In this document: one piece after another, positions 2,914-11,561 of the stretch
Numbering within the stretch: the first letter of the stretch is position 1
Layout: the number at the start of each line of letters is the position of its first letter
Virus record (IMG/VR): IMGVR_UViG_2526164628_000013
Reading direction: 5' to 3' (one strand)
DNA length: 13,370 bases
Origin: a virus
Lineage: Duplodnaviria > Heunggongvirae > Uroviricota > Caudoviricetes
Position numbers and translations under genes: made by a program
The notes under the pieces: model-generated
Database searches by the model: none
Seen by the model: the letters and a program-made list of their open reading frames with translations, nothing else
Told to the model about the DNA's origin: nothing

Positions 2914-3213
2914 ATGAAACTTAAATATTCTGGCTTAACTGCCAGTGGCAACACTCACCCTAAATTTACGCGCGGTGATATTTACCGCGACCAGTACGGC
3001 GGCACGGTAATGATTAAGGGCGTGGAAGAACGGCGCGTAATCTACCGCCGTGAAGGTTACGAATATGATTGCGTGATGCCTGTTTATCAGTTCCGGTGTG
3101 ATTTTTCTCTGGTACAGACCGCGCCGCATAACGTGCCCACCAGCAACGCCAGGGCACGGGCAAACATCCAGAAGCTGAAAACCATGATTAACGGATTCAG
3201 GGGCAAGAAATGA
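2914..3213 (+). CDS. Hypothetical small protein immediately upstream of and overlapping the replication helicase gene
   Basis: ATG 2914; stop overlaps ATG 3210 of the next gene (ATGA-type coupling). Confidence 0.45.
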   Translation: MKLKYSGLTASGNTHPKFTRGDIYRDQYGGTVMIKGVEERRVIYRREGYEYDCVMPVYQFRCDFSLVQTAPHNVPTSNARARANIQKLKTMINGFRGKK

Positions 3214-4625
3214 AAAGCGCACCGAACTTAAAAAAACAGCCTTACGACAAAATGACCGAAGTCATTATTTTTGCGGGTAGTGATGCCTGGGCGCACGCGA
3301 AACAATGGCAGGAGCAGGACGGGCGACTTGCTGGCGACAATGTTCCGCCTGTATGGCTGGGAGACAGCCAGCTTGACGAACTGGCAGGCCTGAAAATTAT
3401 CGACGATGGTCGCTATTGTGTCCGACTGTACAAGGCAGGCCACATCAAGCCGTCAAATATTAATGCCATCGGGCAAAAGCTGGCGGCGGCAGGTGTACGG
3501 GATGCGAATTATTACCCTGAGGGAATGCACAGTCAGAAGCTGGAGAACTGGCACGACTACCTGCAACGGATCCGCGAACAGGCAGAGCGCGGGGAAATAC
3601 TTACTGACGAGCAATACAGCCAGCGAAAAACCACGCTACCAATGAGCATTGGATCTGCAGGGTACGACACACAGCTTGATTATGTCGTTAAGGGCGTGAT
3701 TCCGGCTAATTCATTGTGCAGCACATACGGCGCGAGCGGTTCCTATAAATCGTTCCTCGCGTGTTCCTGGGCGTGTCATGTTGCCACGGGTCGCCACTGG
3801 GGAGGTCGCAGGGTGGCGCATGGTTCGGTGATGTATGTTGTCGGTGAAGGTGGCATTGGTGTCCCCCGCCGTATCAAGGCATGGGAAATCGTTAATGATG
3901 AACGGGTGAAAAATCTGTACCTGGTAAACCGCCCGATTTTTCCTGCAGCCCAGTTTGATGTTGATGAAATGGTTATCGCATCCCGCCAGGTTGAACGGGA
4001 AACGGGTAAACCGGTACGCATGATTATTCTGGATACGCTGGCGCGTTGCTTTGGCGGTAATGATGAAAATGACGCGCGGGATATGGGGGCGTTTATCCGT
4101 GGATGTGACGAACTGAAACGACGCACAGGGGCCACGGTGCTGGTGGTTCACCATTCCGGCAAGGATGAAACAAAAGGGGCGCGTGGTTCCAGTGCATTTC
4201 GTGCATCTCTGGACGCTGAGTACCGGATCCGCCGCGAAGGCGCGGACAGTGAGGCCCTGGTTATCTCCTGCACCAAAATGAAGGACGCGGAGGAACTGAA
4301 AGAGGCTGCATATGATTTACGTGTGGTGGAGCTTTTTACCGACGCTGACAAGGAGTTAATCACGTCGCTGGTGGTTGTGGATAAGCCGCGCCCACCCGTT
4401 GAACTGGAGCGCATCGAGGAGGCCGGAAACAAGACGGAGAATCACGCCGCACTATGGGGCTGTATCCGGTCACGCACACAGCGCGGCGATAAATGCACTA
4501 TCCCGTTGTTGCGCGATGATATGAAAAAGCTGGGGTATGAGATGAAAAACTTCCGGCGCTGGCTGTACAAGCTGGAAAGAGACGGCGTTATCGCTATTGA
4601 CGGTGATGATGTGCGCCCACTGTAA
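3210..4625 (+). CDS. Replication protein: RepA/DnaB-like P-loop helicase (satellite/PICI pri-rep-like) with C-terminal winged-helix-like tail
   Basis: 471 aa. Walker A-like YGASGSYKS, RecA-fold signatures MIILDTLARCFGG and VLVVHHSGKD; basic C-terminal ~60 aa plausibly DNA-binding. Iteron array begins at its stop codon. Confidence 0.75.
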   Translation: MKSAPNLKKQPYDKMTEVIIFAGSDAWAHAKQWQEQDGRLAGDNVPPVWLGDSQLDELAGLKIIDDGRYCVRLYKAGHIKPSNINAIGQKLAAAGVRDANYYPEGMHSQKLENWHDYLQRIREQAERGEILTDEQYSQRKTTLPMSIGSAGYDTQLDYVVKGVIPANSLCSTYGASGSYKSFLACSWACHVATGRHWGGRRVAHGSVMYVVGEGGIGVPRRIKAWEIVNDERVKNLYLVNRPIFPAAQFDVDEMVIASRQVERETGKPVRMIILDTLARCFGGNDENDARDMGAFIRGCDELKRRTGATVLVVHHSGKDETKGARGSSAFRASLDAEYRIRREGADSEALVISCTKMKDAEELKEAAYDLRVVELFTDADKELITSLVVVDKPRPPVELERIEEAGNKTENHAALWGCIRSRTQRGDKCTIPLLRDDMKKLGYEMKNFRRWLYKLERDGVIAIDGDDVRPL

Positions 4626-4826
4626 AAAGTGAGGCGCAAAAGTGAGGGGATAGCAGGAACTGAACAAAAAGCAACCGCGCCCCTCACTTTTCAATCTGTA
4701 TATAGGCTCAAAAGTGAGGAATAAAAAACACATTGAAAAACAACATATTAGAATCACAAAAAAACAAGGTTGGAAATCATGTGGGGAGCTTAAAAAGTGA
4801 GGCGAAAAAGTGGGGAGTAGTGGGGA
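4625..4826. repeat. Iteron array, putative replication origin: AAAAGTGAGG direct repeats plus one inverted copy and an AT-rich stretch
   Basis: AAAAGTGAGG at 4625, 4638, 4710, 4793; variant AAAAGTGGGG at 4806; inverted copy CCTCACTTTT at 4682-4691; AT-rich 4720-4770. Lies directly after the helicase gene. Confidence 0.6.
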
Positions 4827-5078
4827 ATGACCAGAAAAAGCAGAGATAAAACAGCACCAAAATATCGCGCATTAGACATGACAGAGCACGCCTTAAAGGT
4901 GGCAATCAGAACGATAGACCGCCACGCCGGAGAAGGATACGCGAAAGCGCATCCCGAACTGATAAGCGCATTCATGACCACGGCGGCGGCAAATTTTGCC
5001 ACACTGACAGAACGGGAGATTGCCGAAGCGGAACAGGTGACAACCATCAACGTTAAAACCGGAGAGCAGACAGCATGA
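4827..5078 (+). CDS. Hypothetical protein between ori and ssb
   Basis: 83-aa ORF; stop overlaps ATG of the SSB-like gene (ATGA at 5075-5078). Confidence 0.45.
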   Translation: MTRKSRDKTAPKYRALDMTEHALKVAIRTIDRHAGEGYAKAHPELISAFMTTAAANFATLTEREIAEAEQVTTINVKTGEQTA

Positions 5079-5497
5079 CAGCACAGATAGCGGCTTACGG
5101 GCGGCTGGTGGCTGACCCGCAGTTAAAGACCACCAGCAAGGGTACACAAATGACGATGGCGAGTATGGCGGTCCCACTTCCGTGCAGCCAGGCAGATGAC
5201 GGAACGGCGACGATGTGGTTATCCGTCCTGGCGTTTGGCAGACAGGCCGAAGCACTGGCAAAGCACCGCAAGGGTGAACTCCTGAGCGTGGCGGGTAACA
5301 TGCAGGTAAGCCAGTGGACAGGCCAGAACGGCGAAACGCGGCGGGGCTGGCAGGTTATCGCAGACAGCGTAATCAGTGCGCGAACGGCGCGACCGGGCGG
5401 CAAAAAAGGTCAGCAGGGGCAGGCCACTGACGCACTGAACAGGGCAAAACAACAGTCGGGGAATGATGATCCGTACGGCGATAATATACCGTTTTAA
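5075..5497 (+). CDS. ssb: Single-stranded DNA-binding protein-like (OB fold with acidic ...DDPYGDNIPF tail)
   Basis: 140 aa. N-terminal ~100 aa align by eye to E. coli SSB OB-fold segments (GRLVADPQL..., WLSVLAFGRQAEALAKHRKGELLSVAGNMQVSQWTGQNGETR...). C-terminus ends DNIPF, like the SSB DDDIPF tail. Confidence 0.65.
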   Translation: MTAQIAAYGRLVADPQLKTTSKGTQMTMASMAVPLPCSQADDGTATMWLSVLAFGRQAEALAKHRKGELLSVAGNMQVSQWTGQNGETRRGWQVIADSVISARTARPGGKKGQQGQATDALNRAKQQSGNDDPYGDNIPF

Positions 5498-5514
5498 ATT
5501 CTGCAAACAAAAAG

Positions 5515-5543
5515 ATGCCGGAAAAAAATAGATTTTCCGGCAT
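5515..5543. terminator. Perfect 11-bp stem hairpin (ATGCCGGAAAA / TTTTCCGGCAT, 7-nt loop) between replication and capsid modules
   Basis: Read directly. A U-tract follows the stem only on the minus-strand transcript; on the + strand an A-tract precedes it. Orientation ambiguous. Confidence 0.4.
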
Positions 5544-5714
5544 GCTACATAAATCCCGACCAAAGGAAGTAAATACATTAACACGAATTATCAGCACTGA
5601 AGTTGTCACGGCATATTTTATACAACATTGCACTTGGTTGCATGTATTCGCATAGCAGACATCGGTAATAGAATATATTCACAATTATTTGTAATGAATG
5701 TAAAGAGGATGAGT

Positions 5715-6755
5715 ATGGTTGATTTATATTCGCCTACACAGCTTGTGCAGGTGGCTAATGCTGAAGATGTGCAAAAAAAATTAAATGCGTTGTTTACCAG
5801 TTTGTTTTTCACTCGCTCGGTAATGTTTGAATCGAGAGACATTATTCTTGATACGATCGACGATCCAAATATCCCGATCGCGGCGTTTTGCTCTCCTATG
5901 GTGGGCAGTAAAGTTTCACGAGATGAGGGATACGAATCAAAAACAATTCGCCCTGGCTATATGAAACCGAAAAGCAGCATTGATCCAAATAAGTTAGCTG
6001 TGCGCCCTGCTGGTGTATCACCTGAACAATACAATGCTTTTGGGGCGCGTAATATTAAAGTTAAACAGGCGATTGTAAATCAGGCTAAAGCTATACGTGC
6101 ACGTATTGAATGGCTTGCTGTTCAGGCAATCACAACGGGGAAAAATATCATTGAGGGCGATGGTATTGAACGTTATGAACTGGACTGGAATATAAAACCA
6201 CAAAATATTATCACGCAGTCTGGCGGTGCTGAGTGGTCAGGTAAGGATAAAGAAACTTTTGATCCAAATGATGATATTGAGAGCTACGCAGAATTTAGTG
6301 AGGGCGTCACTAATATCATCATTATGGGCGGTAATGTATGGAAGAAATACCGTTCATTCAGAGCGATAAAAGAGGCTCTGGATACCCGCCGTGGTTCTAA
6401 TTCCGAACTGGAAACGGCCCTTAAAGACCTTGGTGATTCGGTGAGTTTTAAAGGGTATATGGGCGATGTTGCGATTGTTGTTTACAGCGGACGTTATACC
6501 GACGAGGACGGAACTGAAAAACATTTCCTTGATCCTGATTTGATGGTGCTTGGCAATACGGCTCTTCAGGGGATTGTCGCCTATGGCGGTATTCAGGATC
6601 CGGAGCTAACCCGAATGGGGCTGACTAAAGCCGAACTTGCACCGAAAAACTATATTGTGCCTGGTGATCCGGCTATTGAGTACGTACAAACGCACTCTGC
6701 ACCACAGCCAATACCGGCCCGCATCAATCGTTTTGTTACCGTTCGCATTGGCTAA
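5715..6755 (+). CDS. Major capsid protein, phage lambda gpE family
   Basis: Internal ATG 5715 with SD AAAGAGG (5702-5708). Long blocks match lambda gpE as recalled (NIITQSGGAEWSGKDKETFDPNDDIESYA..., AIKEALDTRRGSNSELETALKDLG..., YMGDVAIVVYSG..., MVLGNTA). About 346 aa. Confidence 0.85.
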   Translation: MVDLYSPTQLVQVANAEDVQKKLNALFTSLFFTRSVMFESRDIILDTIDDPNIPIAAFCSPMVGSKVSRDEGYESKTIRPGYMKPKSSIDPNKLAVRPAGVSPEQYNAFGARNIKVKQAIVNQAKAIRARIEWLAVQAITTGKNIIEGDGIERYELDWNIKPQNIITQSGGAEWSGKDKETFDPNDDIESYAEFSEGVTNIIIMGGNVWKKYRSFRAIKEALDTRRGSNSELETALKDLGDSVSFKGYMGDVAIVVYSGRYTDEDGTEKHFLDPDLMVLGNTALQGIVAYGGIQDPELTRMGLTKAELAPKNYIVPGDPAIEYVQTHSAPQPIPARINRFVTVRIG

Positions 6756-6764
6756 GGGGGAGCA

Positions 6765-6958
6765 ATGGCTACTCATTACACTGAACTCATGTCTGGCACT
6801 GAAGCACTGGTTACTACGCTGGGGATATTTTCAGCCAATAAAGGGGTAATACCTGCGTTTACGCCACTGATGCAGGAAGATGCAACTGGTGCGCTAGTGG
6901 TATGGGATGGAACGAGCGCAGGCAAAGCGGTTTATGTTTCCGCTGTACAAATCGACAC
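6765..6958 (+). pseudogene. Head decoration protein (lambda gpD-like), 3'-truncated by IS629
   Basis: SD AAGGGGGA then ATG 6765. ...AFTPLMQEDATGALVVWDGTSAGKAVYVSAVQ... resembles the lambda gpD core. Reading frame runs into the IS629 left end at 6959 after ~64 native codons (gpD is ~110 aa). Confidence 0.6.
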
Positions 6959-7012
6959 TGAACCGCCCCGGGAATCCTGGAGACTAAACTCCCTGAGAAA
7001 GAGGTAAACAGG

Positions 7013-7339
7013 ATGACTAAAAATACTCGTTTTTCCCCCGAAGTCCGTCAGAGGGCGATTCGTATGGTTCTGGAAAGTCAGGGCGAATATGACTCACAGT
7101 GGGCGGCAATTTGTTCCATTGCCCCAAAGATTGACTGTACACCGGAGACTCTGCGTGTCTGGGTACGCCAGCATGAGCGGGATACCGGAGGCGGTGATGG
7201 CGGGCTCACCACCGCTGAACGTCAGCGTCTGAAAGAGCTGGAACGTGAAAATCGTGAACTGCGCCGCAGTAACGATATCCTTCGCCAGGCTTCCGCTTAT
7301 TTTGCGAAGGCGGAGTTCGACCGCCTCTGGAAAAAGTGA
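7013..7339 (+). CDS. IS629 OrfA (transposase N-terminal/HTH component)
   Basis: [30 protein letters not shown]...[18 protein letters not shown], 108 aa. Confidence 0.85.
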
Positions 7340-8226
7340 TGCCACTGCTGGATAAGCTGCGTAAGCTGTACGGGGTCGGACCGGTATGCAGTGAACTACA
7401 TATTGCCCCGTCAACGTATTACCACTGTCAGCAACAGCGACATCATCCTGATAAACGCAGTGCCCGTGCGCAGCGCGATGACTGGCTGAAGAAAGAGATA
7501 CTGCGCGTATACGATGGGAATCATCAGGTATACGGTGTGCGTAAAGTCTGGCGTCAGTTGTTACGGGAAGGAATCAGGGTAGCCAGATGTACAGTGGCGC
7601 GCCTCATGGCGGTTATGGGACTTGCCGGTGTTCTCCGGGGTAAAAAGGTCCGCACTACCGTCAGCCGGAAAGCCGTTGCCGCAGGCGACCGCGTAAACCG
7701 TCAGTTTGTGGCAGAACGTCCTGACCAGTTGTGGGTGGCTGATTTTACTTACGTCAGCACATGGCAGGGGGTCGTCTATGTGGCGTTCATCATTGATGTG
7801 TTTGCCGGATACATCGTGGGGTGGCGGGTCTCATCGTCTATGGAAACGACATTCGTGCTGGATGCTCTGGAGCAGGCGTTATGGGCCCGTCGACCGTCCG
7901 GCACAGTCCATCACAGTGATAAAGGTTCTCAGTATGTATCGCTGGCCTACACACAGCGGCTTAAGGAAGCCGGATTACTGGCATCAACAGGAAGTACTGG
8001 TGACTCGTATGACAACGCGATGGCGGAGAGCATCAATGGCCTTTACAAAGCGGAGGTAATACACCGTAAGAGCTGGAAAAACCGGACAGAAGTGGAACTG
8101 GCCACACTCACGTGGGTGGACTGGTATAACAATCGACGATTGCTGGAAAGGCTGGGCCATATCCCACCGGCAGAAGCAGAAAAAGCTTATTATGCTTCCA
8201 TCGGAAACGATGATCTGGCAGCCTGA
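7336..8226 (+). CDS. IS629 OrfB (transposase catalytic component; -1 frame relative to orfA)
   Basis: 296 aa with rve-type integrase core (…[14 protein letters not shown]…[10 protein letters not shown]…[10 protein letters not shown]…); overlaps orfA end, typical of IS3-family frameshift organisation. Confidence 0.85.
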
Positions 8227-8280: not shown

Positions 8281-9831
8281 TCATCGCACACCGCCTTTTT
8301 CCTGATGAAAGCGGCAACGAGCAATCACGGATTGAATTTCAAATTGTGTGGTTTCATGGATTGAAATAAGTGGATTGCGGGCGTTACCAACACTGTCTGA
8401 AATGGAAATCAATTCATCGACTTCTTTAACTACACTCTCCAGCACCGCCTGATGGTCACCATCAGTAAAGGGGCGGAAATACAGGCAACCGTAGCAGCAG
8501 CGTACTTCACTGAATGGGCATTTGCCATCATCTCTGGAGCAACCGCCAATCCCATCATGCAACTCATCACCGATTATGCCGACCACGCGCTGGTCTTGCC
8601 ATTTCGTTGAAGAGGTCAGTTCACCAGTCAACATCATAGCCACCATGTTTTGCCATACCGGATTGATACCCAATGCTTTGGCTCGAATCAGTGCCAGTGC
8701 AGGCGTCGCCAGAATGTAATACTTGGCAACAGTAAGGGAGCTATGTCCCAGAATATGCGCAATTTCCTCGGCGCTGACCCCTTGCATAGCCAGTGAATGC
8801 CCCACGTTGTGGCGCAAGTCGGTCGGGGTAATGGTTGGCAAAGCCGCTTCGCCACGCTTTACGGCTGCCTGATAATCTGGCGGACTGAAACAGAGGAAGG
8901 CCTTGTTAATCGCTCTGGACACATTAAACGGTGCAGAGTTACTAAATTCAAATAGCTTGCCATCAGGTTTTAGTTGCGCTCGCTCGATATAGTGCCTAAT
9001 CAACGCGCCGATTTCAGCTGGAATCGCCAAAAACAGACGTTCAGTCGTTACGTGCCGCTGTTTGGCGTAAGGAAGGAGTAAGCTATATCGTATTAATCCG
9101 GTTTCGGAGTTTCGGGTATCAATACGTAAATCTTTTACCGCCAGCTTGGCCAGTTGTACCGGTCGGGCACCGGTGACATACGTCAGTCCCAGAATTACTG
9201 CATCTCGCATGGTGTTCAGACTGTAGTTTTCGCCATACCGAATCGCCACAGCCATTTCAAACAAGCCTTTACTGATCATGTTTTTTTCGAGGGGATCCAG
9301 AACATGATCAATTTCCTGATAGATTCCCCAGTCATGGGAGTGCGGGCGAGGGATGAATTCGAGGTCTTCATAATCTTCGAGGGTAAAACCAGGGAATGCT
9401 TCGGTACAGAGGATTTTTAGGCCGAAAATGATAAAGTAGAAATATTGAGGTTTAATTTCCTGAGTTTCGAGGTAATCTTTCAACACCGTAAAAGTGAAAG
9501 CAGATTTGCTTATGCAATGATCAGTTGCCAAAGACCACGCATGGAGTACCCCAGGAACCTGAGCTGGACACTTGGCAGATGCATAATGGAAGCAAATATA
9601 TTTGATTAATTGGTTGCTGATTTTATCCTGACGAAAGTGGGCATAGCAGCGGCTTCCTGAATAATCGAATACCCAACTGTCACTTGTTGAGCTGATATAT
9701 TTGTCATCAAAATGATCTGCCGATTTAAGATAAATACTAACTGGTATATTAACCTTTAAAATACTCTCAACAAATACAGGTGTGTAAATGTTGCTGTTCG
9801 ACGCATTTAACTGTTTATTGATTCGACTCAT
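8281..9831 (-). CDS. Large tyrosine recombinase (~516 aa) with extended N-terminal domain and ~135-aa C-terminal extension carrying a Cys cluster
   Basis: Box I-like LGLTYVTGARPVQLAKL, box II-like TDLRHNVGH and LGHSSLTVAKYY (catalytic Tyr). Start at ATG 9831 (GGAG 5 nt upstream); in-frame ATGs also at 9846 and 9855. Stop lies 12 bp from the IS629 right end. Confidence 0.7.
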   Translation of the reverse strand: MSRINKQLNASNSNIYTPVFVESILKVNIPVSIYLKSADHFDDKYISSTSDSWVFDYSGSRCYAHFRQDKISNQLIKYICFHYASAKCPAQVPGVLHAWSLATDHCISKSAFTFTVLKDYLETQEIKPQYFYFIIFGLKILCTEAFPGFTLEDYEDLEFIPRPHSHDWGIYQEIDHVLDPLEKNMISKGLFEMAVAIRYGENYSLNTMRDAVILGLTYVTGARPVQLAKLAVKDLRIDTRNSETGLIRYSLLLPYAKQRHVTTERLFLAIPAEIGALIRHYIERAQLKPDGKLFEFSNSAPFNVSRAINKAFLCFSPPDYQAAVKRGEAALPTITPTDLRHNVGHSLAMQGVSAEEIAHILGHSSLTVAKYYILATPALALIRAKALGINPVWQNMVAMMLTGELTSSTKWQDQRVVGIIGDELHDGIGGCSRDDGKCPFSEVRCCYGCLYFRPFTDGDHQAVLESVVKEVDELISISDSVGNARNPLISIHETTQFEIQSVIARCRFHQEKGGVR

Positions 9832-10237
9832 ATGCACTCCATTCATCGCATACATGGGAAAAGGTTGATTTCAGGGCTTCGTTATCAATCACAATTCGCT
9901 GAAGATTGGCCGTATTAGCCTGCTGAGATAGAAATCTTTTAGCGTAAAGATCAGGCATATGGCTATTGTGACTCCAACCGCCAAGTAGCCGTAATTCATC
10001 CTTGGCTTCATCCATCAATCCAACGATAGAAAAGTCTATGGCTGCCAAGTGTGAGTTGGCCTTAATTTTTTGAAGTTTATCACGATAAATACGTTGAAGT
10101 GTTAAATAAGCCCAAGTATGCCGCGTTATATGAGGCGAGATGCTTTCAATGGCATCATAATATTCATCTTTTTTATATTCAGGATACTGCACACTCATAA
10201 TGTCATCAATACGGGTAAAGATATCATAGACTGCATG

Positions 10238-10242
10238 GTATG
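10238..10242. repeat. IS2 target-site duplication, left copy (GTATG)
   Basis: GTATG immediately left of the IS2 end at 10243; identical to 11573-11577. Confidence 0.8.
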
Positions 10243-10333
10243 TAGACTGGCCCCCTGAATCTCCAGACAACCAATATCACTTAAATAAGTGATAGTCTTA
10301 ATACTAGTTTTTAGACTAGTCATTGGAGAGCAG

Positions 10334-10663
10334 ATGATTGATGTCTTAGGACCGGAGAAACGCAGACGGCGTACTACACAGGAAAAGATCGCTATTGTTC
10401 AGCAGAGTTTTGAACCGGGAATGACGGTCTCCCTTGTTGCCCGGCAACACGGTGTGGCAGCCAGCCAGTTATTTCTCTGGCGCAAGCAATACCAGGAGGG
10501 AAGTCTTACTGCTGTGGCCGCAGGAGAGCAGGTCGTTCCTGCCTCTGAACTTGCTGCTGCCATGAAGCAGATTAAAGAACTCCAGCGCCTGCTCGGCAAA
10601 AAACGATGGAAAATGAACTCCTTAAAGAAGCCGTTGAATACGGGCGTGCAAAAAAGTGGATAG
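10334..10663 (+). CDS. insC: IS2 OrfA (InsC), apparently frameshifted in this copy
   Basis: [18 protein letters not shown]...LQRLLGKK matches InsC, then the frame diverges (…[19 protein letters not shown]) while the expected InsC C-terminus [31 protein letters not shown] is encoded in the +1 frame from 10603. A-run at 10598-10603 is 6 A. Confidence 0.75.
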
Positions 10664-11561
10664 CGCACGCGCCCTTATTGCCCGGGGATGGGGAGTAAGC
10701 TTAGTCAGCCGTTGTCTCCGGGTGTCGCGTGCGCAGTTGCACGTAATTCTCAGACGAACCGATGACTGGAAAGATGGTCGCCGCAGCCGTCACTCAGATG
10801 ATACGGATGTGCTTCTCCGTATACACCATGTTATCGGAGAGCTGCCCACGTATGGTTATCGTCGGGTATGGGCGCTGCTTCGCAGACAGGCCGAACTTGA
10901 TGGTATGCCTGCGATCAATGCCAAACGTGTTTACCGGATCATGCGCCAGAATGCGCTGTTGCTTGAGCGAAAAACCGCTGTACCGCCATCGAAACGGGCA
11001 CATACTGGCAAAGTGGCCGTGAAAGAAAGCAATCAACGATGGTGCTCTGACGGGTTCGAGTTCCGCTGTGATAACGGAGAAAAACTGCGAGTCACGTTCG
11101 CGCTGGACTGCTGTGACCGTGAGGCACTGCACTGGGCAGTCACTACGGGCGGCTTCGACAGTGAAACAGTACAGGACGTAATGCTGGGAGCGGTGGAACG
11201 CCGCTTCGGCAACGAGCTTCCGGCGTCTCCAGTAGAGTGGCTGACGGATAATGGTTCATGCTACCGGGCTAATGAAACACGGCAGTTTGCCCGGATGTTG
11301 GGGCTTGAACCGAAGAACACGGCGGTGCGGAGTCCGGAGAGTAACGGCATAGCAGAGAGCTTCGTGAAAACGATAAAGCGTGACTACATCAGTATCATGC
11401 CTAAACCAGACGGGTTAACGGCAGCAAAGAACCTTGCAGAGGCGTTCGAGCATTATAACGAATGGCATCCGCATAGTGCACTGGGTTATCGCTCGCCACG
11501 GGAATATCTGCGGCAGCAGGCCAGTAATGGGTTAAGTGATAACAGGTGTCTGGAAATATAG
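10656..11561 (+). CDS. insD: IS2 OrfB (InsD transposase catalytic component)
   Basis: 301 aa, [34 protein letters not shown]... matches InsD as recalled; GTG start just after the A6G slippery motif (10650-10656). Confidence 0.85.

Follow-up and report, generated by a model that had tools for sequence, protein, structure and literature searches.

The replication origins of PICIs are described as lying directly 3' of rep and as having an AT-rich region with a set of iterons on either side, and this organisation is said to be common to all PICIs identified by Fillol-Salom et al. 2018, ISME J (PMC6092414). Replication was tested there by plasmid maintenance for EcCICFT073 only, with rep plus its downstream region, and all initiators of this kind were named 'Pri-Rep' (PMC6092414). 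The alpha protein and its cognate ori are given as the autonomous replication system of P4 (PMC6092414), and SaPI Rep, an initiator-helicase that loads itself, uses a winged-helix domain at its C-terminus to bind short iterons just downstream of rep (PMC9371898). The kind of origin considered here is already known from published PICIs, because PMC6092414 describes the type and because the published island EcCI042 has a helicase 88% identical to the one studied here and the same AAAAGTGAGG iteron layout.

The window, that is the whole 13,370 nt stretch of DNA analysed, is from an E. coli PICI of the EcCICFT073/EcCI042 type. Its gene order is the 3' end of int, alpA, an Icd-like gene, DUF4222, the helicase, the repeats, an 83-aa gene, ssb, major capsid and head decoration; alpA (PF05930), DUF4222, the AAA_25 helicase, SSB and Phage_cap_E are all on the + strand, the single direction that PICI order leads one to expect. 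The initiator-helicase gene (3210–4625, + strand, stop codon included) encodes 471 aa, named 'helicase RepA family protein' in RefSeq. It is followed by the 83-aa gene (4827–5078, + strand), which has no assigned function, is kept in E. coli PICIs whichever of the two initiator types they carry and has a product that shares 85% identity with its EcCICFT073 homologue across 67 aligned residues, and by the gene for the single-strand DNA-binding protein of the PICI replication module (5075–5497, + strand; Pfam PF00436, E=1e-15). DUF4222, the 83-aa gene, SSB and the N-terminal domain are present in EcCICFT073 as well, there together with a different helicase.

The segment 3210–5500 is 100% identical to strains KSC1031 and TW10590, in which identical copies of the island sit between abgR (a lysR-family gene) and smrA; lysR-smrA is the attB given for EcCIEC2733.1 (Table S1, PMC6092414). 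Intact identical copies further encode head decoration, HTH and small terminase genes, and in the window an IS3-family element replaces the right end of the island after 7007. Mobilisation of this truncated copy may have been lost, although its replication module is intact. The published att core ACATTATTAATATCGTGA was absent from the window, and so is attL, as one would expect of a window that begins within int.

Iterons were sought by pattern in the window. A sequence-only reading of this DNA had reported five or more direct copies, a count that holds if one mismatch is allowed and fails for exact copies: four exact direct copies of AAAAGTGAGG were found, all on the + strand inside 4625–4825, together with three GTGGGG-type or degenerate direct copies in the same stretch, giving seven in total. 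The array was correctly placed at the helicase stop codon, as TAA occupies 4623–4625 and iteron L1 (AAAAGTGAGG, 4625–4634, + strand) shares its last base. Iteron L2 (AAAAGTGAGG, 4638–4647, + strand) stands 13 bp after L1. The one inverted copy was likewise confirmed, being exact and reading CCTCACTTTT on the + strand at 4682–4691 (iteron on the – strand), and it forms the left arm of a divergent pair of which iteron M (AAAAGTGAGG, 4710–4719, + strand) is the right arm. This pair spans 38 bp in the window (4682–4719) and has at its centre TGTATATA (4697–4704), a candidate first melting point. The AT-rich core, presumably the DNA-unwinding region, follows at 4720–4776 with a GC content of 0.23–0.31. 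To its right, the pattern search placed degenerate iteron R0 (TCATGTGGGG, GTGGGG-type, 4777–4786), iteron R1 (AAAAGTGAGG, 4793–4802), iteron R2 (AAAAGTGGGG, one mismatch, 4806–4815, 13 bp after R1) and degenerate iteron R3 (AGTAGTGGGG, GTGGGG-type, 4816–4825), all on the + strand, the last overlapping the ribosome-binding region of the next gene. The AT-rich stretch of the earlier reading is real: GC was 0.31–0.36 in 100-nt windows across 4650–4799 against 0.50–0.60 in the flanks, with a minimum of 0.23 in the 60-nt window starting near 4708.

Ten matches to the 9-mer with at most one mismatch were present in the window, six of them inside 190 bp; 200 shuffles gave a mean of 2.74 and a maximum of 8, none reached 10, and enrichment of the repeat by chance is excluded. 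The 8-mer AAGTGAGG is absent elsewhere in all 13,370 bases. A search for a second iteron cluster across the window, which stops short of the right end of the island, found AAGTGAGG and AAGTGGGG only in 4625–4826. Origins of DnaA-dependent iteron plasmids (pSC101/R6K/P1 type) have DnaA boxes beside the iterons, whereas 4560–4860 contains neither a DnaA box (TTATNCACA, at most one mismatch) nor a GATC, and just one IHF-like site, with one mismatch, was found, inside the AT-rich core. A host-initiator-dependent origin was set aside on these grounds. The stretch 4625–4825 is very probably the vegetative replication origin of a Gram-negative PICI, and the likeness to PICI iteron origins that had been proposed is supported by agreement with the published description (PMC6092414).

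The ATPase of the helicase (residues 152–320) matched AAA_25, a RecA-type family (Pfam PF13481, E=3e-44), scoring 151.3 bits against a curated cut-off of 27, and its Walker A motif is deviant (GASGSYKS). The nearest solved sequence was RSF1010 RepA (PDB 1g8y), a weak match to the helicase (E=0.019). In the full-length AF2 model (mean pLDDT 61) the motor domain was poorly modelled, which left a Foldseek search with that model largely uninformative; only RecA-fold proteins stood out, with high-probability matches of the core to RadA, Rad51 and Dmc1, all RecA-type, whereas KaiC, also RecA-type, was matched with a probability of only 0.51. The family match assigns the motor to RecA-fold AAA_25, unlike the unrelated SF3 helicase (D5-type; D5_N/DUF5906/Pox_D5) of EcCICFT073, the iterons of which are of the CTGTCTACC type and also differ from those of the window. 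The two proteins have in common only about the first 130 residues: residues 1–130 form an N-terminal domain in common with the EcCICFT073 Pri-Rep, the first 131 residues are 61% identical and the remainder is unrelated. At E≤1 neither terminal domain gave a usable Pfam match. In Pectobacterium and Xenorhabdus, homologues have Zn-ribbon and Toprim primase domains ahead of the motor, as in gp4; these primase domains are lost from the E. coli version.

RSF1010 RepA and the T7 gp4-type primase-helicases belong to the same ATPase family (PF13481) as the window helicase. RSF1010 iterons are read by a separate initiator, RepC, and to our knowledge T7 gp4 has no origin-binding domain; unlike both, the window helicase has a putative winged-helix reader fused to the motor. 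P4 alpha combines a primase with an SF3 helicase, its reader is the C-terminal winged-helix domain, and it requires a second iteron cluster, crr, in cis. P4 and the island studied here are both enterobacterial satellites with a multidomain initiator and short iterons, but the window motor is RecA-type and the window has no second iteron cluster equivalent to crr. The SaPI ori of S. aureus resembles the present locus in lying directly downstream of rep with a central AT-rich region, and the modelled fold of the window helicase matches the SaPI-type C-terminal winged-helix domain. The motors differ, SaPI Rep being an SF3/SF6 (MCM-like) AAA+ protein of 3'-5' polarity and the window helicase an AAA_25 protein of predicted RecA fold. 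The iterons of SaPI origins are oppositely oriented on the two sides, whereas in the window all but one are direct, the right-hand set being wholly direct and the inverted copy lying to the left of the AT-rich core in the divergent pair.

The C-terminus of the helicase (residues 402–471; 4413–4622, + strand), the proposed iteron reader, is confidently modelled as a winged-helix domain. The AF2 domain model had a pLDDT of 85.8 and the topology H-H-H-beta-beta, with the winged-helix fold proper at residues about 410–471, and Foldseek matched it to DtxR/IdeR, IclR, LexA, MCM8-WH and Rpa2-WH with TM scores of 0.6–0.7. The recognition helix comprises residues 448–457 (KNFRRWLYKLER) and is strongly basic, and K446 and N447 form its N-terminal cap. 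The domain as a whole is only mildly basic (pI 8.7, 14 K+R against 12 D+E). The sequence-only reading had assigned iteron recognition to a basic C-terminal tail; recognition by this domain is supported by the covariation given below, but the 'tail' is modelled as a folded winged-helix domain and its overall charge is slight.

Eighty loci in other Enterobacterales encode helicases 47–71% identical to that of the window, and most of these 80 foreign loci have GTG[A/G/C]GG repeats directly 3' of the stop codon. The common layout comprises one or two direct copies, one inverted, one direct, an AT-rich block and two or three direct copies. In 52 of 56 loci from other genera the inverted and the direct copy form a pair with a TATATA-type centre and a span of exactly 36 bp, and the TGTATA columns are invariant in eight E. 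coli ori variants. Most related loci keep a single inverted copy, most have an AT-rich block in the corresponding place, and the repeats stand directly after rep in all of them. Only the helicase core and the C-terminal domain co-occur with the repeats in the foreign loci; DUF4222, the N-terminal domain, the 83-aa gene and SSB were found at none of the 80 that carry iterons. These comparisons tie the repeats to the helicase and not to a neighbouring gene. The 83-aa gene and DUF4222 had also been considered as repeat binders, and were rejected since both are present in EcCICFT073, which has other iterons, and missing from the 80 foreign iteron loci.

Among the classifiable loci of helicase homologues, the residue aligned to N447 predicted base 7 of the iteron. 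Asn was paired with A in 24 of 24 loci, His with G in 12 of 12, Lys with G in 25 of 26 and Ser or Gly with C in seven of seven, these being counts of loci that are related by descent and not phylogenetically independent. The pairing of Asn with A is not strict, because the right-hand set of the window mixes GTGAGG and GTGGGG. Two E. coli mosaics separate the domain from the rest of the protein. The helicase of P0079 is 63% identical overall with a C-terminal domain 89% identical over 70 residues that keeps the KNFRRW recognition motif of the window helicase, and the locus retains GTGAGG in the left, inverted and middle iterons. That of P0001 is 95% identical overall with a swapped C-terminal domain carrying a KHF motif, and its iterons are GTGGGG throughout, the inverted copy included; the swap between the window and P0001 alters 12 residues, N447 among them. 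Additional E. coli loci fit the rule. In these mosaics the base-7 rule holds independently of divergence in the helicase core, and it is probably the single residue 447 that reads the iteron base.

These data are consistent with the following course of replication. A helper phage would induce the island, and rightward transcription would yield the 471-aa initiator-helicase, whose winged-helix C-terminal domain would bind the 9–10 bp iterons AAAGTG(A/G)GG and read base 7 through the residue that caps the recognition helix at its N-terminal end, which in the window helicase is Asn447. Helicase subunits would gather on the left tandem pair, the divergent pair (4682–4719) and the right tandem set, and the DNA may melt at the TGTATATA centre, at the neighbouring AT-rich core of ∼55 bp, or at both. 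The RecA-fold (SF4-like) motor would then load itself onto single-stranded DNA, and the island SSB (encoded 250 bp downstream) and, presumably, the primase and polymerase of the host would finish replication.

The same repeats might instead serve mainly as transcriptional operators, through which the helicase or some other regulator would autoregulate rep or control the 83-aa, ssb and capsid genes, and not as an origin. Iteron-binding plasmid initiators commonly autoregulate, the right-hand iterons reach the ATG of the next gene across its ribosome-binding region, and L2 with the inverted iteron folds as a stable RNA hairpin (–26.5 kcal/mol, z=–3.6) that is followed by UUUU. However, the U-tract after the inverted copy is missing from GTGGGG-type loci, e.g. 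CCCCACTTCCC, and a scan of 4400–5100 found no sigma-70-like promoter and no canonical terminator. The genes downstream are wholly different in other genera, where layout and AT-rich core are nevertheless kept, and the same layout is a tested origin type in related islands. A mainly regulatory function is considered unlikely, although such a role could coexist with origin function.

A cos/pac-type packaging site, read by the island small terminase or by the helper terminase, was weighed as well. Packaging signals and a terS-like gene are part of PICIs, short repeats often make up terminase-binding sites, and a small terminase subunit is encoded by this island where it is intact. Such a site is nevertheless very improbable: the repeats covary with the C-terminal domain of the helicase, their position after rep is fixed in all loci, and elements of Xenorhabdus and Pectobacterium have the iterons with no capsid or terminase gene within 3 kb flanks. 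The idea that the repeats clustered by chance, or belong to a generic REP/BIME-like family of E. coli with no specific role, has nothing in its favour beyond the shortness of the motif and is refuted by the shuffles, the confinement of the 8-mer to one 200-bp stretch and the layout kept across genera. An Rfam scan of the whole window found no family at the origin, its sole match being an ALIL pseudoknot within the IS3-family element. Nor did the repeat prove to be a common genomic motif, the outcome that the earlier reading had set against itself: it is confined to one spot in the window and elsewhere adjoins homologues of the helicase. Related DNA was present in 592 of 5426 complete E. coli genomes, with a 'helicase RepA family' gene alongside in every match listed.

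As a replication origin, the locus is standard for a published island family and occurs in about one in ten complete E. coli genomes. What goes beyond the available literature is the cross-genus layout with its pair of fixed span, the predicted RecA-fold motor ending in a winged-helix domain, and the tracking of iteron base 7 by residue 447. The available portion of the PMC6092414 text makes no mention of a RecA-type motor, a winged-helix C-terminal domain or a specificity residue, and its supplements give no iteron list, the iterons being drawn in Fig. 2a. A wider reading, which in our judgement is evenly balanced, is that the cassette encodes an initiator-helicase able to load itself, whose motor has a RecA fold (SF4-like, RSF1010 RepA / T7 gp4 family) in place of the SF3/SF6 AAA+ motors found in every PICI and SaPI Rep characterised so far, with a fused winged-helix reader, a near one-residue code between residue 447 and base 7 and assembly on a divergent pair (36–38 bp, TATATA centre), and that E. 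coli PICIs swap it with the unrelated SF3 cassette behind a common 130-residue N-terminal domain. If this is true, the fusion of an origin reader with a replicative helicase would have arisen twice independently in satellites, with helicases of opposite polarity. One substitution could then reprogram origin specificity, and hence the incompatibility of co-resident islands. PICI initiators thus far come as exchangeable cassettes of helicase, C-terminal domain and origin, from two unrelated helicase superfamilies. For the present cassette the comparative data nominate a domain and a residue as the determinant of origin specificity, which bears on cross-talk or incompatibility between co-resident satellites.

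The helicase open reading frame (3210–4625, + strand) ends in a TAA stop codon at 4623–4625, and the first iteron begins on the final base of this codon. Exact copies of the iteron, AAAAGTGAGG, start at 4625, 4638, 4710 and 4793 on the + strand, which also carries a copy with one mismatch (AAAAGTGGGG, start 4806) and two shorter GTGGGG-type copies (starts 4777 and 4816); a single exact inverted copy, CCTCACTTTT, lies at 4682–4691. The sequence-only reading had claimed at least five direct copies, which holds only if one mismatch is tolerated, the exact copies being four in number; the inverted copy, the AT-rich stretch and the start of the array at the helicase stop codon were confirmed in the sequence. 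The AT-rich core is located between the 4710 iteron and the right-hand iteron set, where the GC content of 100-nt windows reaches a minimum of 0.31 and the poorest 60-nt window has 0.23 (flanks, 0.5–0.6). The 8-mer AAGTGAGG was absent from the remainder of the 13.4-kb window. Neither a DnaA box nor GATC was found at the origin region (4560–4860), therefore nothing there points to a DnaA-dependent origin.

The arrangement was compared with 80 loci from other Enterobacterales (Xenorhabdus, Pectobacterium, Serratia, Morganella, Pantoea, Kosakonia, Citrobacter and others) matching helicase residues ∼136–471 at 47–71% identity. Repeated GTG[A/G/C]GG was present directly 3′ of the helicase stop codon in most of these loci, and at background level elsewhere in the locus. 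The order is kept: one or two direct copies are followed after ∼35 nt by a single inverted copy and after another ∼20 nt by one direct copy; an AT-rich block of ∼50 nt then leads to two or three direct copies. In the comparison loci and in the window (4682–4719) the inverted iteron and the next direct iteron form a divergent pair; its outer span is 38 bp in the window, while 52 of 56 loci have a span of exactly 36 bp. The centre of the pair is TGTATATA or CATATATA, and the TGTATA columns were invariant in eight E. coli origin variants irrespective of iteron type. One E. coli origin (L089, 1998–2420), on the contig that encodes P0064, is ∼200 bp longer; its core is tandemly duplicated, since it has a second divergent pair, CCCCACTTTTGCGTATATATAGGGGGTTAAAAGTGGG, accompanied by a separate AT-rich stretch.

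Only the helicase core and C-terminal domain are common to the window and the loci from other genera, in which DUF4222, the helicase N-terminal domain, the 83-aa gene and SSB were not found. The converse case is EcCICFT073, a published E. coli phage-inducible chromosomal island (PICI), which has counterparts of DUF4222 (92%), the 83-aa gene (85%) and SSB of the window, and whose initiator matches that of the window over the first 131 residues (61%). Beyond residue 131 the EcCICFT073 protein is a D5_N/DUF5906/Pox_D5 (SF3) helicase without relation to that of the window, and the iterons of this island are of the CTGTCTACC type. The co-occurrence of the repeats with the helicase core and C-terminal domain and this converse case both suggest, on sequence comparison, that the repeats belong to the helicase.

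The last ∼65 residues of the helicase are conserved as NHxALW..IRSRT...C(T/S)...RDD(M/L)K..G..K-x-F-x-RWL-x-KLE. AlphaFold confidently modelled this region as three helices followed by a beta-hairpin (pLDDT 80–89 in the full-length model; 85.8, with pTM 0.71, for the domain alone). Foldseek searches of the PDB returned winged-helix DNA-binding domains (DtxR/IdeR, the IclR-type PcaR, LexA and the winged-helix domains of MCM8 and Rpa2) with TM-scores of 0.6–0.7 and E-values of only 0.04–0.3, an expected level at a domain length of 70 residues. In the model residue 447 caps the N terminus of the third (recognition) helix, and the residue aligned with N447 predicts the variable base 7 of the iteron across all classifiable loci. 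Asn was paired with A (24/24), His with G (12/12), Lys with G (25/26) and Ser or Gly with C (7/7), these counts being of non-independent events; the rule also fits the published island EcCI042 and three further genomes. In chemical terms Asn could plausibly pair with adenine, and His or Lys with guanine; residue 447 may thus contact base 7 directly.

Mosaic helicase homologues from E. coli separate the C-terminal domain from the motor as the correlate of iteron type. P0079 is 63% identical overall, with a C-terminal domain 89% identical over 70 residues and the KNFRRW recognition motif kept, and in its origin the left, middle and inverted iterons all still read GTGAGG. P0001, at 95% overall identity, has a replaced C-terminal domain (KHF), and its origin has GTGGGG everywhere, inverted copy included. 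P0041 (KNM) occurs with GTGAG and P0053 (KHL) with GTGGG, in origins that are otherwise alignable.

The ATPase of the helicase matches PF13481 (AAA_25, E=3e-44), and among solved structures the closest in sequence is the RSF1010 RepA helicase (E=0.019). The Walker A motif (3729–3752, residues 174–181) reads GASGSYKS, in which Tyr replaces the canonical Gly before Lys; its residues, Ala175 excepted, are invariant in 18 of 18 aligned homologues, and because of this conserved substitution the motor may have unusual nucleotide binding. In homologues from Pectobacterium and Xenorhabdus the ATPase is preceded by a primase zinc ribbon and Toprim; these proteins resemble the primase-helicase T7 gp4 with a winged-helix domain appended, and their genes adjoin integrase and Ash genes in small integrative elements. 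Two of these elements, from Xenorhabdus sp. TCT-1 (L004) and Pectobacterium polonicum (L056), have the window-type winged-helix domain and origin layout; the Ash-family gene is in the latter, while the former is followed by an S-type pyocin/Ntox21 toxin gene (4858–6603, − strand). They may represent uncharacterised satellites or defence or toxin islands.

We consider it very probable that the repeat region is the replication origin of the island, working as follows. The iterons would be bound by the winged-helix domain, and helicase subunits would gather on both tandem groups (left pair and right set) and on the divergent pair. The TATATA centre, the AT-rich core or the two together would be where the DNA opens, after which the helicase would load itself and the SSB of the island, with host enzymes, would complete replication; here iteron binding, melting site, helicase polarity and primase usage are what we infer. 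The SaPI Reps, which have been studied most among PICI initiators, belong to the SF3 or SF6 AAA+ helicases, have 3′–5′ polarity and read iterons via a C-terminal winged-helix domain (PMC9371898); the window cassette would work alike but differs in protein family.

A purely regulatory operator is improbable. The right-hand iterons do abut the start of the next gene, and the second and inverted copies (4638–4691) pair as a perfect inverted repeat of 12 bp around a 30-nt loop, a hairpin that is stable as RNA (−26.5 kcal/mol, z=−3.6) and has UUUU after it; however, promoter and terminator consensus are both absent from 4400–5100, and the layout is kept across genera despite differing downstream genes. 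The hairpin might attenuate read-through from rep or stabilise the end of the rep mRNA; its U-tract is not kept in GTGGGG-type relatives. That the repeats are a packaging site is more improbable still, as they covary with the helicase and some loci have no terminase or capsid gene seen nearby. A chance cluster is refuted, its probability being negligible: the iteron 9-mer with at most one mismatch had 10 matches in the window against 2.74 expected, a number reached in none of 200 shuffles. Interpretation of the array as an origin in the sequence-only reading was, like its observation, essentially right.

The E. coli KSC1031 and TW10590 chromosomes match window 3210–5500 at 100% identity, and related DNA was found in 1879 of 5426 complete E. 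coli genomes. In both strains the island is flanked by abgR (a LysR-family gene) and smrA; the lysR–smrA site is that of the EcCIEC2733.1 entry in Table S1 of Fillol-Salom et al. 2018 (PMC6092414). Its genes are integrase, AlpA-type regulator, YlcI/YnfO, Icd-like, three small genes, DUF4222, 'helicase RepA family protein', the 83-aa gene, SSB, major capsid, head decoration, HTH and small terminase, which is the Gram-negative PICI order. Pfam matches in the window were AlpA, DUF4222, AAA_25, SSB and Phage_cap_E. In the stretch 6765–8226 the head-decoration gene is shortened to 80 aa (113 aa in intact copies) by an IS3-family element (orfA 7013–7339, orfB 7336–8226, ALIL frameshift pseudoknot 7294–7410). 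The window has none of the HTH, small-terminase and right-end genes of the island, so transfer of this copy is improbable; the replication module is intact. A 524-aa tyrosine-recombinase-like gene (8281–9855, − strand) lies 3′ of this element, and beyond it is a second IS3-family element (10289–10663 and 10656–11561). The TW10590 counterpart of 8281–11561 is ∼200 kb away from the island, which suggests IS-mediated rearrangement in the source strain of the window. A 396-aa open frame (810–2000, + strand), of odd composition rich in Ser, Arg and Cys, is antisense to the YlcI/YnfO gene (1517–1822, − strand) and is left unannotated by RefSeq in identical copies; this frame is unlikely to be a gene. 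The 760 bp 3′ of alpA carry no annotated feature.

According to PMC6092414, the PICI origin is the DNA immediately 3′ of the replication initiator gene, in which an AT-rich region has a set of iterons on either side, an organisation common to every PICI identified by Fillol-Salom et al.; EcCICFT073 rep with its downstream DNA maintained a temperature-sensitive plasmid, and rep or ori mutants failed. A later paper restates that the GN-PICI origin is downstream of pri. EcCI042 is among the islands studied in PMC6092414; its helicase is 88% identical to that of the window with an identical recognition-helix motif, and AAAAGTGAGG repeats lie 3′ of it in the same arrangement. Because of this published origin type and the EcCI042 twin, the kind of feature, and essentially its sequence family, is already known. 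Origin-related DNA was found in 592 of 5426 complete E. coli genomes, and the window origin is an ordinary member of the published class. What appears to go beyond the available literature text is the RecA-type initiator, the fixed geometry of the divergent pair and the residue–base rule, all of them suggested by comparison.

The origin DNA (4615–4830) diverges much faster than the helicase gene (3210–4622), with identities of 60–80% in most E. coli copies and many helicase-region matches at 90–95%; this faster divergence is consistent with frequent exchange of the C-terminal domain and origin segment. The E. coli helicase lacks primase domains and has in their place an α/β domain of ∼130 residues (3210–3600; pLDDT 80–90) without a Pfam match, the region shared at 61% identity with the SF3-type Pri-Rep of EcCICFT073 (L002, 5242–5640). 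This domain looks like a common adaptor for the exchange of two different cassettes of helicase, C-terminal domain and origin.
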